The notes under the pieces were generated by a model. That model did no database searches, was not told the origin of the DNA, and saw nothing but the letters and a program-made list of their open reading frames with translations. The position numbers and the translations under genes were made by a program. Shown piece after piece: positions 17,041-59,132 of a DNA stretch of 64,000 bases (its first letter is position 1; each line of letters begins with the position of its first letter). Source of the DNA: Eledone cirrhosa (taxonomy: Eukaryota); assembly GCA_964016885.1 (NCBI GenBank), contig OZ024741.1:167648001-167712000 (forward strand), written 5' to 3'.

Positions 17041-17338
17041 TGTGTTAGGTAATTCCAAAGGAAAAACAAAGGAAAAAAGAGTGCTCTACGTATAGAATAG
17101 TGCTATTTAATTAGAAAGTGAACAACACAAAATATAACTACTCCATTACCAAAGGTTTCTGGATCACAGACGATAATATACATCTGGATCGTTCGTCAGA
17201 CAGATGTTATAGATAAAAGATATCTTTTATCTATAACATCTCTGTCTGACGAACGATCCAGACGTATATTATTATTGTCTGTGATCCAGAAACCTTTGGT
17301 AATGGAGTAGTTATATTTTGTGTTGTTCACTTTCTAAT
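17041..17338. mobile_element. Foldback (palindromic) hammerhead-bearing mini-element, PLE pLTR-like, with left-side tail
   Basis: Arms 17110-17221 / 17222-17338 with no loop (centre gatatc); unpaired tail 17041-17109; abuts (TA)n. Confidence 0.85.
17232..17315 (+). ncRNA. Type I hammerhead ribozyme (mirror copy on - strand ~17133-17211)
   Basis: Stem I CUCUGU/AUGGAG plus UAUAAC/GUUAUA; core CUGACGA (17246) ... GAAA (17289); stem II gauc-cagac/gucug-gauc; stem III ACC-uuu-GGU; cleavage triplet GUA at 17299-17301. Confidence 0.8.
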
Positions 17339-17448
17339 ATATATTAATAAAAGGAATTCCAACTTTGTCTGATTTACTCGTTTTATTTACAATCCTTTAA
17401 AATAATGATATTATAATGAAATAGTATGGTAGAATATTAAATGTTAAT

Positions 17449-17487
17449 TGGACAACTACTTTCATGGTTTCGCAATCTTCAGGTTCA
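17449..17487 (-). ncRNA. Minimal hammerhead motif in the Neptune-like pLTR (mutated copies at 18422-18460 and ~23400-23452)
   Basis: ugaac-CUGAAGA-uugc-GAAA-...; across the copies stem III is AGCAU-gaaa-GUACU and stem I is ugaac/guuca. Confidence 0.55.
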
Positions 17488-17891
17488 TATTCAGTGGTGA
17501 CAGTCAAGTTTGCAATTTTCAACTGTAATGAGATGGCTAAAATATGTGCCTTATATACAGTAAAAAGGGGCTACAGAATGCTAAGTTTTGCAAACTGTAT
17601 TTCGACCAATCGGTGTGTGGTTTCACTAGATTACTAAAGCTGATTGGTTTAGGCGTCACAGTTGGTTGAGCATGTCTAATGACTACTAATTGACCCTATC
17701 CAAAGCATCAATTGTTTTGCTATTTTTAGAAATGATGAAAATAGCATTTTCTAGGGTTTTTGTAAAAATTCTTCAGTAATCATCAACATCAACATCACTT
17801 TTATTATTATTATTGTTGTTGTTGTTGTCAGTGGTGGTAGTCGACATGGTCGTAGGCGTAGTCATAGTAGAAGTAATACCACTAAGCATTA

Positions 17892-18312
17892 TTATTGTTC
17901 ATTTAGCTTGGGTTGGAATTTATCAATAAAATTCTTTTCTTTAATGTTTCTCTTGATTTCACTTGGGCTGTGTAGTTTGTCGACTGGAAATATTATAAAT
18001 ATTTTCTGACCATATGTTGCTAGATGGTTACTCAGGGGTATCTGACGGACATTTGGGTCTTTGATTTGCTGTCGGTGCACCCGTGCACGTTCTGATAGTG
18101 CATTTCCAGTTTGACCGACATATAGTTCTTCACAATTCGGGCATTTAATGCAGTGAATTACATTTCTGCTTTTGCAGTTCATATTTGCATTTGGGAATAT
18201 TTTTCCAGTTTTTGTGTTCATATATTGACCAGTATGTATGAACTGACATGTACCACATCGACTATCATTGAATTTAGATACAGTGAATAATTGGTCTTTG
18301 TTGGTAAGGTCA
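17892..18312 (-). pseudogene. PLE GIY-YIG endonuclease fragment with upstream CxxC linker
   Basis: RCGTC...NCKSRNVIHCIKCPNCEELYVGQTGNALSERARVH...H...KEKNFIDKFQPKLN; the N-terminal part of the ORF-track call (18313-18461) is merely the inverted pLTR. Confidence 0.85.
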
Positions 18313-18317
18313 AACCG

Positions 18318-18380
18318 ATTGGTCGAAATACAGTTTGCAAAACTTAGCATTCTGTAGCCACTTTTTACTGTATATAAGGC
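18318..18380 (+). promoter_or_regulatory. Putative pLTR Pol II promoter (reverse CCAAT plus TATA box) upstream of the hammerhead motif
   Basis: attgg at 18318 and tatataagg at 18371; same arrangement in the 23239-23340 copy (aaccaatcag, gattgg, tatataaggc). Confidence 0.4.
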
Positions 18381-18672
18381 ACATATTTTAAAATTGCAAA
18401 CTTGACTGTCACTACTGAATATGAACCTGAAGATTGCAAAAGCATGAATGTACTTGTTCAATTAACATTTAACACTTAATATTCTACCATACTATTTCAT
18501 TATAATATCATTATAATTTTAAAGGTTTGTAAATAAAATAAGTAAATCAGACAAAGTTGGAATTCCTTTTATTAATATAATCTTCTATACACCCGTGTTT
18601 ATTTATTTATATATATATATATATATAGTGACGAAACATAAGTCAATTGCATGAACTCATAATCCTTTATTT

Positions 18673-18728
18673 ACTACTATATATATTTCGATGATAGCCA
18701 TTGAATGGCTATGACCTCATCAGGCAGT
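18673..18728 (-). ncRNA. Type I hammerhead ribozyme in a TA-bounded pLTR-like segment (18627-18915)
   Basis: ACUGC-CUGAUGA-gguc-AUAGCCA-uucaa-UGGCUAU-cauc-GAAA-UAUAU-AUA-GUAGU; stem I ACUGC/GUAGU; self-complementary stem III AUAUAUAU. Confidence 0.8.
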
Positions 18729-56046: not shown

Positions 56047-56519
56047 TATATATTCACTACTGCTGTATTTTGTTGAAATGATTCATTTTATTGCTCATGC
56101 CCCAACACTACAAATATGGTATTTTTAAAAAAGCAACGATTTGAGAAAAAGGATAAAAGAGTTAAAAGGCATATATATTTTCATACAACTTTACTCCAGT
56201 CATGAAAATAATGAGGAAAAAGTGAAAAGAAAATCTAAATATTGTACATTCCATGTTGTGCCAGCAGATGACAATTACTTGTGTATATGTGAACATGTGT
56301 ATGTGTGTGTATATGTGAACATGTGTATGTGTGTGTATATGTGCCTCTCTGACTGTCTCACTCTTTGCCTGCCACTCTGCTTAATATGTATATTCCTCCT
56401 GCAACCTATACTGTAATTCTTTCTATCTGTAGCTCCTTTTTACTCTTTCTTCCCTTCTCTATATTAAATATACATCTGACAGACCAACTAGGCACATTGG
56501 ATATTATATATTTTCCAGC

Positions 56520-56655
56520 ATAGTTACGTCCCTTTACGGTCTGAGTTCAAATCCTGCCGAGGTTCACTTTGCCTTTCATCCTTATGGGGTCGATAAAATA
56601 AAGTACCAGTAATGTACTGGGTAATTGCTGGCCTTGTGCCAAAAGTAGAAACAAT
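56520..56655 (+). mobile_element. 5'-truncated Meta/MESC-like SINE
   Basis: Matches 49325-49458. Confidence 0.8.
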
Positions 56656-57480
56656 ATATTAAAGGTGGATAGGGCATGGACAAATGTTAAGACTTCACTT
56701 AACAATTATTAGGTCTCAAAGTCAATCCAACTGCATGGCATCTTGGACGAGTGTTATTTACCATAGTCTTGGGTTGACCCATGCCTTCTAAGTTAGGTTG
56801 GGTAGGGAGAAACGTTTGTCAGATGGATTGTGCTTATCATTTGAAGGGGGCCCAGCCTTGTCATGCACTGTCCTGCTGAATAATCATCACTATTTTTTTG
56901 TCTATTTTCCATGCTGGCATGTATTAGATCGGTTATCATGTTCTATGGCTAGACAGATCAGATGAATGTGTCTCACTCATATGTTCCCTTCTGGCATGGT
57001 TTCTCTGGCTGGATGACTTTCCTAATGCCAACCACTTCACAGCATGTACCTGGTGTATTTTGTCACCACCACTACCACTACCACTACCACATGACAGGGT
57101 GGACTGAATACATTTTATTGTGATACCAGTACTACCACTTTACAGTGTGGGATGAGTACATATTTATGTGGACTGAAAGAATTGTTTTAATGGAACATAT
57201 CTGTGGAATGCTCAGACACTTTCACATTAATTTCATGAGCAGGCTGTTCCAAATAACTGGAACACTGATTGTCAAAACTAAAGGTCTATTTTATTCCATT
57301 CCATGTATCAAAGATACTTAACTTCCTAAACTATTGTGAAATAAACAGTAATTAAAAAATTACTTTTACACAATATAGACATTAAAGAAATCAATGAAAC
57401 TACTATACTTTGGGTCATGCTGCTAATAAAAACCCATGCACCATTGAATTTCACTTCAGTTTTATTATTAGTCAGGTAAC

Positions 57481-57710
57481 TAGGGTGGTGGATTGGCAGT
57501 ATCGTTAGAGCATCAAATTTTGTGGTATTTAGCTATGACTCTTTACATTGAGTTCAAATTCTGCCACGGTCAGTTTTGCTTTTCATCCTCCAGTGGAAGA
57601 TGGGGGTTGATAAAATAAAGTACTGATAAAATGTCAAGTACTTGGGTTGATTGGATCGACTTTTCCCTCCCACCAAATTGCTGAACTTGTCCCTCAATCA
57701 GAAAACATTA
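57481..57710 (+). mobile_element. Diverged Meta/MESC-like SINE
   Basis: agggtggtggattggcagtatcg...gagttcaaattctgcc...gataaaataaagtac. Confidence 0.72.
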
Positions 57711-58003
57711 TCAGGTAGCTAATTTATTCCTCGGTTGGTTTAGTAACTAGATGGTTATTTAATTGACAGTTCTATTGTCACACATTTTGAGACTTTCTCA
57801 ATGGCTGTTCTTGCTTTGCTGTGTATTCATTTTGATTTTTCTTTTTATTTATCTATCTTGTGACAAGATGGAGTAACTAACACAAATACAAAAGCAAAAT
57901 ATTATATAATATTTCACAATTTACTAGATAGAAACATGGGATTTCATATAACTTAATTGACTTCCCAGACATCTAGTTTTTCTTTATTGATGTCAATTTG
58001 CAG

Positions 58004-58043
58004 AAGTGCTATCTTCAAAAGCTGTCTACATGTTTCGGTGTAT
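58004..58043 (+). CDS. Possible further exon (xVLSSKAVYMFRC, or KCYLQKLSTCFGV in frame 0)
   Basis: tttttctttattgatgtcaatttgcag acceptor and gtaagt donor; reading phase uncertain. Confidence 0.3.
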
Positions 58044-58199
58044 GTAAGTGTTTCTGAGTATATATGCATATGTTTGTGTATGCATATGTGTGCAAGATAA
58101 CAATATATATATATAAATTATATAATTATATTGTATAATAGAGTAATAGTTGTGTTGTTGCATATGTGTTTGTGTGTGTGCGCGCACACTCTTATGTTA

Positions 58200-58940
58200 T
58201 ATCATAGATTATACTTTTGTTATATATATATCATAATATATATACTTAGATATGTTATCGTATATATATCATATAACATATATGTATACTTATCATATAT
58301 ATATATATCATAAAACATATATATACTTGTATATGTTATTGTATATATATATCACCATTTTACGTCCGCTTTTCCCTGCTTGCAAGGGTGGGACGGGAAC
58401 TGATTCTGCCTTTACAGCTGCAAGCCCTTCCTAACACCAACCTCATTTACTGTGAGTGCTGGGTGATTTTTTTTTTTTTTTTTTTCCGTGGCGCCTACAC
58501 GACCACTTTACAGTGTGGGCTGGGTGCTTTCTTTTTGCTGTGGCACCTCCACGACCACTTTGCAGTAGAATGATAGGGACCCCAGTCCCTATCATCTCAT
58601 TTCTACAGCTGAGTGAACTGGAGCAATGTGAAATAAAGTGTCTTGCTCAAGGAAATAACACATCACCTGGTCTGAGAATTGAACTCGCAACCTTTTGATT
58701 GCAAGGCCAATATCATATAACATATATATATACTTGTATATGTTATCGTATATATAACATATATATAACATATATATATATACTTGTATATGTTATCGTA
58801 TATATATCATATATATATACTTGTATATGTTATCGTATATATATCATATATATATATATACTTGTATATGTTATCATATATATATCATGACATATTTATA
58901 TATATACTTATGTTATATCATATATCTATGTTATCATATA
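58200..58940. repeat. TA-derived minisatellite (tatacttgtatatgttatcgtatatatatca) split by a SINE
   Basis: Units on both sides of 58352-58710. Confidence 0.8.
58352..58710 (-). mobile_element. RTE-tailed tRNA SINE, head truncated
   Basis: Matches 25812-26122. Confidence 0.9.
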
Positions 58941-59132
58941 ACGAAGATGTGGTAAGGAACCAGATGGACTGTAACGCACCAGAGTACTCAATACTTAGGG
59001 TAGTAGAATGGGTAATAGGAAAATGTATGACCCCTACGGCAGAGCTCAAGCCATTTCGATGGCTATTTCTGGAGTCCAGAAATAGCTGTCGAAACAGCTT
59101 GAGCTCTGCCGTCGGGGTCATACATTTTCCTA
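58941..59132. mobile_element. Foldback element with half hammerhead and left tail
   Basis: Arms 59016-59073 / 59075-59132; arm consensus GAAACGGC-uuGAGCUCu-GCCGUC-gggguc; related to 38131-38303. Confidence 0.82.

Follow-up and report, generated by a model that had tools for sequence, protein, structure and literature searches.

Seven short palindromic elements, E1 to E7 in window order, lie in a 64,000-nt stretch of Eledone cirrhosa DNA (OZ024741.1:167,648,001-167,712,000; hereafter the window). Each can be read, with considerable confidence, as a head-to-head pair of 5'-truncated copies of the hammerhead-bearing end, or pseudo long terminal repeat (pLTR), of a Penelope-like element (PLE), set in TA-rich DNA and likely produced in one insertion by two reverse-transcription events, both of which, in several families, likely ran off the capped 5' end of the RNA. 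A preliminary description of the window had offered two readings, PLE integration products or a non-autonomous, retrozyme-like class. The first is upheld by coding parents, by a tail length that is fixed in each family, by copy-specific junctions and by the fact that either arm may be the longer. The second is not supported: the seven have neither an apex sequence in common nor a tandem monomer, and five of them lack an intact ribozyme in at least one arm.

Architecture of the elements and their genomic copies

All seven palindromes were recovered, by centre-out scanning and self-alignment, where they had first been placed (Table 1). Their description as near-perfect suits six of them (self-identity 90.6-98.7%) but not E3 (81.2%), and the tail (40-98 nt) is indeed confined to a single side in all seven. 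Pure (TA)n of at least 15 nt on both sides flanks three of the seven (E2, E3 and E5), whereas the other four are merely TA-rich or adjoin a short, one-sided TA run. Six families can be told apart, as had been suggested, but they are not all unrelated: E3 represents a sister subfamily of E7, with arm and tail in common, and a tail motif is shared by E4 and E7.

To sample copies, the genome (3.0 Gb, 1796 contigs) was searched with each tail plus a short piece of arm, so that matches were not chosen for their apex. This gave 23-2902 first-look candidates per element (1132 for E1), and a sample of 203 copies, the window's own seven included, was made up of the top 30 loci for each element or, for E5, of all 23. 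Both arms were mapped on natural long copies as references. Two arms, one of them inverted, were present in 120 of the 203 copies; the remaining 83 are single arms, carry tails on both arms or were left unassigned by the mapping. The outer end of the inverted arm is fixed in each family (40 nt from the tail end in 14/14 E5 copies, 77-80 nt in 27/27 E7 copies) and adjoins TA or GA repeats in 110 of the 120. By contrast, 115 of the 120 junctions are distinct; common outer ends with differing junctions set these copies apart from MITE-like or SINE-like families (miniature inverted-repeat transposable elements and short interspersed nuclear elements, respectively). A check suggested at the outset, whether the apex is shared or varies between copies, thus points to integration by-products: distinct junctions, together with the finding that either arm may be longer, mark insertion products rather than a self-copying palindromic class.

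Arm lengths also bear on a self-priming or foldback route, proposed for Penelope in rotifers (PMC3846280), in which the end of a single cDNA, or of an antisense template, folds back and a mirror arm is copied from it, the tail being left by endonuclease resolution. Such a route would agree with the 54 of 120 copies whose arms are within 10 nt of each other, with the presence of a rare change of the hammerhead core in both arms of E2, and with frequent E7 junctions that resemble a hairpin with a 6-nt loop. However, the tail-less arm contains more than 10 nt absent from the tail arm in 44 copies and the reverse is true of 22, and a single template arm would need later deletions to yield both. 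Moreover, the arms of one copy are hardly more alike than those of different copies (identity 0.936 within versus 0.922 between for E7, and 0.979 versus 0.975 for E2), E5 being the exception (0.977 versus 0.950). Two cDNAs accommodate both sets of asymmetric copies (44 and 22), for which a single foldback is a poor fit, and we regard foldback as quite unlikely.

Long palindromes are a known class of artefact, and foldback chimeric reads arising in the library or assembly were considered together with MITEs of DNA transposons. Within the elements, one arm departs from the other by 1-19%, and the sites at which arms begin are particular to each family. Exact matches to the E7 arm motif number 25,204 in the genome, and the E7-type head-to-head junction pattern occurs at 19,206 loci (about one per 156 kb over 3.0 Gb), against three for a reversed control. 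Contigs of four separate public runs hold E7-family pieces, some across the apex region and none spanning a whole element; these may represent other copies and may derive from the sample used for the assembly itself. The arms continue into PLE open reading frames (ORFs), not transposases. Parent ORFs and copy-specific arm differences refute both artefact and MITE origin.

Coding parents

Parents encoding reverse transcriptase (RT) and a GIY-YIG endonuclease had been anticipated, and coding parents were found for five of the seven elements (four Hydra-type and one other PLE), but not for E1 or E4. E5 continues upstream into an ORF with RT and GIY-YIG, the first codons of which lie in the E5 tail. 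E6 continues into an element of 3-4 kb with RWR, DKT and CxCX5C motifs, and in the E2 parent tandem pLTRs bracket ORFs (L384-L386) with DKT and CxCX5C. The E7 parent, locus L283, was obtained from stretches around matches to the E7 arm motif that had long upstream sequence; in it, an inverted copy precedes a tandem that has an open ORF of 717 codons, which contains the same motifs as the E6 parent (RWK/DKT/CxCX5C). A partial tandem with the tail running into the ORF is seen in L283 and L217, and an inverted copy with a one-sided tail also occurs in the long coding copies L213 and L283.

By their motifs and (TA)n target, the parents of E2, E3/E7 and E6 are likely PLEs of the Hydra clade, which is known to prefer (TA)n (PMC8557442). 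The E5 parent differs in its linker and endonuclease pattern and is not of this clade. In a profile comparison it aligns to the Hydra-type profile over 225 columns (E=0.006). A protein search returned 822 relatives, nearly all of them unnamed, and searches of PDB sequences with the Hydra-type ORF and its profile yielded nothing useful.

Arm ends and candidate transcription starts

The arms of four to five families end at one position, and the pieces likely represent the first 140 to 275 nt of the RNA of the element. Measured from the tail end, 45 of 57 E7 arms end at 130-142 nt, 29 of 42 E4 arms at 128-140 nt, 20 of 51 E2 arms at 264-277 nt and 9 of 48 E1 arms at 180-190 nt; for E3 the figure is 33 of 47 at 128-140 nt, with arms beyond the stop unscorable for want of a parent reference. 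Parent sequence upstream of the stop is absent, by hand count among the matches listed, in about 70 of 100 E7 and about 97 of 100 E4 matches. For E2, 445 matches genome-wide have a non-parent base directly before the stop, compared with 73 at a site 20 nt downstream; by hand count, the latter comprise 31 point mutants, 27 cases of a single kind of junction, which is itself formed at the stop, and a remainder of 15. The stop in L283 is upstream of the 717-codon ORF, at a distance of 237 nt from its ATG.

Promoter-like features accompany some of these stops. Of 30 long E4 copies, 20 have a TATA-like box exactly at -30, and of 25 long E7 copies, 22 have one at -29 to -31; CCAAT boxes are located further upstream. 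The initiator consensus, YYANWYY, is matched at the stop in E7, E1 and E5 (three of five stops tested; background 1-3% per position). A G precedes the arm end in 11 of 22 arms at the stop versus 41 of 175 elsewhere (Fisher p=0.018), and for E2 it precedes the stop in 44 of 100 matches listed (hand count), where the parent has C.

Before some E7 arms among the matches listed there is an uninterrupted run of T at a place where the parent has three T residues (C1:20838036 and C1:23089408 are examples), which looks like stuttering of the RT at the template end.

These features can be placed in a scheme that begins with two observations made here: one arm starts at the far tail end, and its partner has a constant starting point of its own, an inner site 40-100 nt upstream. 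In published work, both strands of the DNA are cleaved and extended by a purified PLE protein, which initiates reverse transcription at a pair of internal RNA sites delimiting the tail (PMC11167929). Two cDNAs, one per cut target strand, would then be joined by their 3' ends. If the transcript started inside a pLTR, as it would by this scheme, it would contain a copy of the priming sites 140-275 nt from its cap, and priming near the cap would give short, fixed-length run-off cDNAs, which would account for the sharp stops and for the extra G. A pLTR promoter is established for Drosophila Penelope, where it is internal and lacks a TATA box (PMC2377424). With moderate confidence, we propose from the DNA that a PLE strong-stop product integrates: reverse transcription, which starts internally, would be primed on the 5'-proximal pLTR of the element's own mRNA, two cDNAs would run off at the cap, which would be copied as an additional base, and would be joined, and tens of thousands of fixed-length, promoter-delimited hairpins would have been left in (TA)n.

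Several observations weigh against this account or parts of it. The transcription start at the stop is a putative one, deduced from the DNA. E5 and E6 show little or no hard stop (4/37 and 3/41 arms, respectively). No TATA box was found at the expected distance for E1, E2 or E5, and the E2 and E4 stops fail the initiator match at one position. The stop positions were picked from the same data in which the excess of G (p=0.018) was then tested, some of these G residues can be explained by the other arm, and at the E2 control site G is found in 5 of 11 non-flank junctions. Among 100 E7 matches listed with arms abutting (TA)n, the base before the stop is C in 60, G in 33 and A in 7 (hand count, T excluded), which is not a clean cap signal. 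As to the parents, no linked ORF was found in 30+4 loci for E1 or in 32+10 loci for E4, Pfam fails to recognise the Hydra-type ORF of L283, and a weak match to RVT_1 or to GIY-YIG was obtained in 1 of 35 relatives each; the assignment to the Hydra clade rests on motifs.

Sharp stops might instead reflect structural pauses of the RT, for example in loop II of the hammerhead, or a 3' splice site, rather than an RNA 5' end. The E7 stop does fall within the parent hammerhead's loop II, in a context similar to a splice acceptor, the 5' intron of Penelope ends at the hammerhead (PMC2377424, PMC4209133), and the test for a cap-derived G was mixed. By contrast, the stops of E1, E2 and E4 are upstream of the hammerhead core and outside loop II, two families have a TATA-like box at -30, and the arms commonly keep the AG that splicing would remove. 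A pause or splice origin is unlikely on this evidence.

A third possibility is that the palindromes propagate themselves, short copies being transcribed and re-mobilized with their apex kept. The preponderance of short over long forms in E7 and E4 described above would suit such a class, as would the lack of a coding parent for E1 and E4 among the loci examined and a few E7 junctions with extra arm sequence (L017, L040, L042 and L058), which may have been copied from an older junction. The initiator is also kept in short copies, and the promoter of Drosophila Penelope is internal (PMC2377424). Yet nearly all junctions are distinct, and the repeated E7 ones are simple joins or one segmental duplicate; with respect to the tail, the loop may face either way; truncation at the stop removes the TATA box; and most copies have no whole ribozyme, none being detected by descriptor in the sense arm of 30 E7 or 30 E3 copies. 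Self-propagation is thus very improbable.

Hammerhead ribozymes

Each arm had been described as carrying a whole hammerhead or its 3' half. A whole hammerhead is indeed present in both arms of two of the seven elements (E1 and E5), and E3, E6 and E7 have the 3' half only; the statement does not extend to E4, which is degenerate in both arms, or to E2, where the whole geometry is retained but the core is changed in both. A comparison with shuffled sequence returned four descriptor matches across the window versus 0-3 (mean 0.65) in 20 block shuffles, a modest excess. No hammerhead was reported by Rfam among 47 matches in the window, nor among the 150 matches listed, out of 224, for ten loci. 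The first descriptor missed five families and was loosened post hoc, after the sequences had been viewed; in this loosened form, which misses E1 and was also the one applied to shuffles, long copies of E2, E4, E5, E6 and E7 match on the sense strand only, and none of 500 shuffles for each family did so. With the earlier descriptor, matches were obtained in 5 of 30 E1 copies.

The E7 parent has a U3-A8 variant core, TTGAGAA, in 10 of 25 long copies (three more have a different base at position 7), and a loop II of about 40 nt that contains the TATA box and the putative start. Its minimum-energy fold is a hammerhead three-way junction, although the energy is no better than that of shuffles. A search for the canonical CUGANGA core upstream of the E7 arm (5, then 192 matches) gave no parent-like match among those listed; the parent has the variant core and a longer loop. 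Given the 40-nt loop of the parent, an origin of the apex as a natural hairpin of stem II was discarded. With the putative start inside loop II, only the 3' half of the ribozyme would be copied in E3 and E7. Overall, the hammerheads are likely passengers and the palindrome a by-product.

At about positions 2995-3105 of L283, the TATA-like box and putative start lie inside stem-loop II of the hammerhead, so that a transcript from there would have no complete ribozyme at its 5' end. The E7 arm has a small internal hairpin with two CpG sites, and across copies L001-L030 these often co-vary, with pairing kept.

Comparison with known systems

The preliminary description knew of no account of the ORF-less palindromic form as a dense, multi-family genome component, but inverted, 5'-truncated pLTRs with a tail are in print (PMC8557442, PMC3846280), as are hammerhead pairs on opposite strands 100-700 bp apart, ascribed to truncated PLEs (PMC4209133). 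Insertions of endonuclease-containing PLEs have the head-to-head inverted, truncated copy, the one-sided tail, the junction palindrome and the microsatellite targets seen here; their pLTR likewise overlaps the ORF start, and TATA and initiator-like motifs have been noted in one pLTR (PMC8557442, PMC3846280). In these accounts the tails are 30-40 nt, whereas those found here are 40-100 nt, both copies are often too short for any ORF, and the arm ends of a family cluster at a single base. The E2, E3/E7 and E6 parents share with the Hydra clade RW[KR], DKT, CxCX5C, a C-terminal GIY-YIG-type motif, the hammerhead and (TA)n, but differ from what is described there in their very high copy number and, for E7, in the U3-A8 core and loop II of about 40 nt (PMC8557442).

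Like minimal PLE hammerheads, those found here are of type I, with a short or palindromic helix III, an unpaired base before helix II, the U3-A8 variant and opposite-strand pairs; in contrast to that account, three of the seven elements keep the 3' half only, because their arms stop inside the ribozyme (PMC4209133). Poseidon of Anolis carolinensis, studied in vitro, also has two internal RT starts that bound the tail, cuts and extends both strands, and uses AT-rich targets. Hammerhead cleavage is not needed in that system and product length is set by the template's 5' end; that work does not deal with the joining of two cDNAs or with run-off at a natural cap (PMC11167929). Non-LTR retrozymes are similarly short, non-coding, hammerhead-bearing and PLE-related, but are head-to-tail tandems with a whole ribozyme per unit and circular RNA (PMC7229834; bioRxiv 10.64898/2026.07.22.740005). 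The seven elements are all head to head rather than in tandem units, with copy-specific junctions and ribozymes that are mostly broken or halved.

The finding is ordinary if put forward as a new class of ribozyme retroelement. The layout, TA targeting and opposite-strand hammerheads are published; the arm stops under a TATA box are likely a new mechanistic variant. A pile-up of arm ends, or the idea of run-off at a cap, was not found in the accessible parts of the open-licence literature, and closed-access papers or supplements may describe such stops.

By published accounts, the way in which PLEs form their inverted repeats and tails has yet to be settled (PMC8557442, PMC11167929), and the unequal arm lengths seen in the set of 120 copies speak for two cDNAs rather than self-priming. 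If the strong-stop proposal were true, the apexes would form a genome-encoded map of PLE transcription starts and genomic evidence for twin priming. Octopus has unusually many loci that form near-perfect double-stranded RNA, of which the source is unnamed in the available text (PMC5625713); under the same proposal, the hairpins are possibly a main source of it. At about one junction per 156 kb for one family, they may supply substrates for A-to-I editing.

Other features of the window

Table 1 Palindromes and arms of the seven elements, in window coordinates.
Feature	Position	Strand	Remarks
E1 palindrome	17110-17338		self-identity 94.0%
E1 tail-bearing arm	17041-17223	-	tail 17041-17109; hammerhead core 17199-17147; ends at family stop, 188 nt from tail end
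E1 inverted, tail-less arm	17220-17338	+	hammerhead core 17246-17301; also ends at 188
E2 palindrome	19659-19973		self-identity 96.2%
E2 tail-bearing arm	19572-19815	-	tail 87 nt; hammerhead with core change; parent probably a Hydra-type PLE
E2 inverted arm	19812-19973	+	core change identical to that of the other E2 arm
E3 palindrome	38134-38234		self-identity 81.2%
E3 inverted arm	38134-38183	-	3' half of hammerhead only
E3 tail-bearing arm	38180-38303	+	sister subfamily of E7
E4 palindrome	38322-38454		self-identity 92.5%
E4 inverted arm	38322-38387	-	ends at family stop
E4 tail-bearing arm	38388-38525	+	degenerate hammerhead; long copies elsewhere with CCAAT and TATA boxes upstream of stop
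E5 palindrome	52635-53020		self-identity 98.7%
E5 inverted arm	52635-52822	-	minimal hammerhead, core at 52787
E5 tail-bearing arm	52823-53060	+	minimal hammerhead, core 52868; 40-nt tail contains first codons of parent ORF
E6 palindrome	54784-54936		self-identity 96.7%
E6 tail-bearing arm	54686-54855	-	tail 98 nt; 3' half of hammerhead; parent probably a Hydra-type PLE
E6 inverted arm	54854-54936	+	
E7 palindrome	59016-59132		self-identity 90.6%
E7 tail-bearing arm	58941-59074	-	tail about 77 nt; 3' half of hammerhead; parent probably a Hydra-type PLE with open 717-codon ORF, locus L283
E7 inverted arm	59073-59132	+	begins at putative transcription start

A longer case, absent from the preliminary description, occupies 17339-18620 (-): a truncated PLE with a GIY-YIG ORF (18461-17895; Pfam GIY-YIG E=5.4e-05, above the cut-off), preceded by an inverted stretch, about 270 nt long, of its own 3' end. 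A second copy of this family, at 22857-23566, is head to head with a short left arm and adjoins an RT fragment. The centre-out scan returned two further non-simple palindromes, at about 22857-23090 and at 50355-50495. The latter is a tRNA-headed SINE, the front part of which is duplicated in head-to-head inverted orientation and abuts a TA run; it may represent PLE-like handling of a SINE. The window has four further copies of this SINE, at 25999, 36276, 58587 and 60379, and their 5' flanks are TA-rich.

Single PLE-type ends of another family lie at 18620-18920 (-), with a complete type I hammerhead at 18723, and at about 53100-53330 (-). An end that is 71% identical to E1, at 18930-19140 (-), has a complete hammerhead at 19095, the stems of which differ from those of E1 by paired changes. 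A broken Hydra-type PLE at about 20600-22280 (-) is 74% identical to the E2 parent over 1731-2207 of L385. From their translations, we take 53452-53940 (-) to be a Mariner-like transposase remnant, and 23640-24746, 28783-29940 and 61897-62790 (-) to be fragments of RTE-like long interspersed nuclear elements. Positions 1-15800 consist of a long tandem repeat with strong GC skew.

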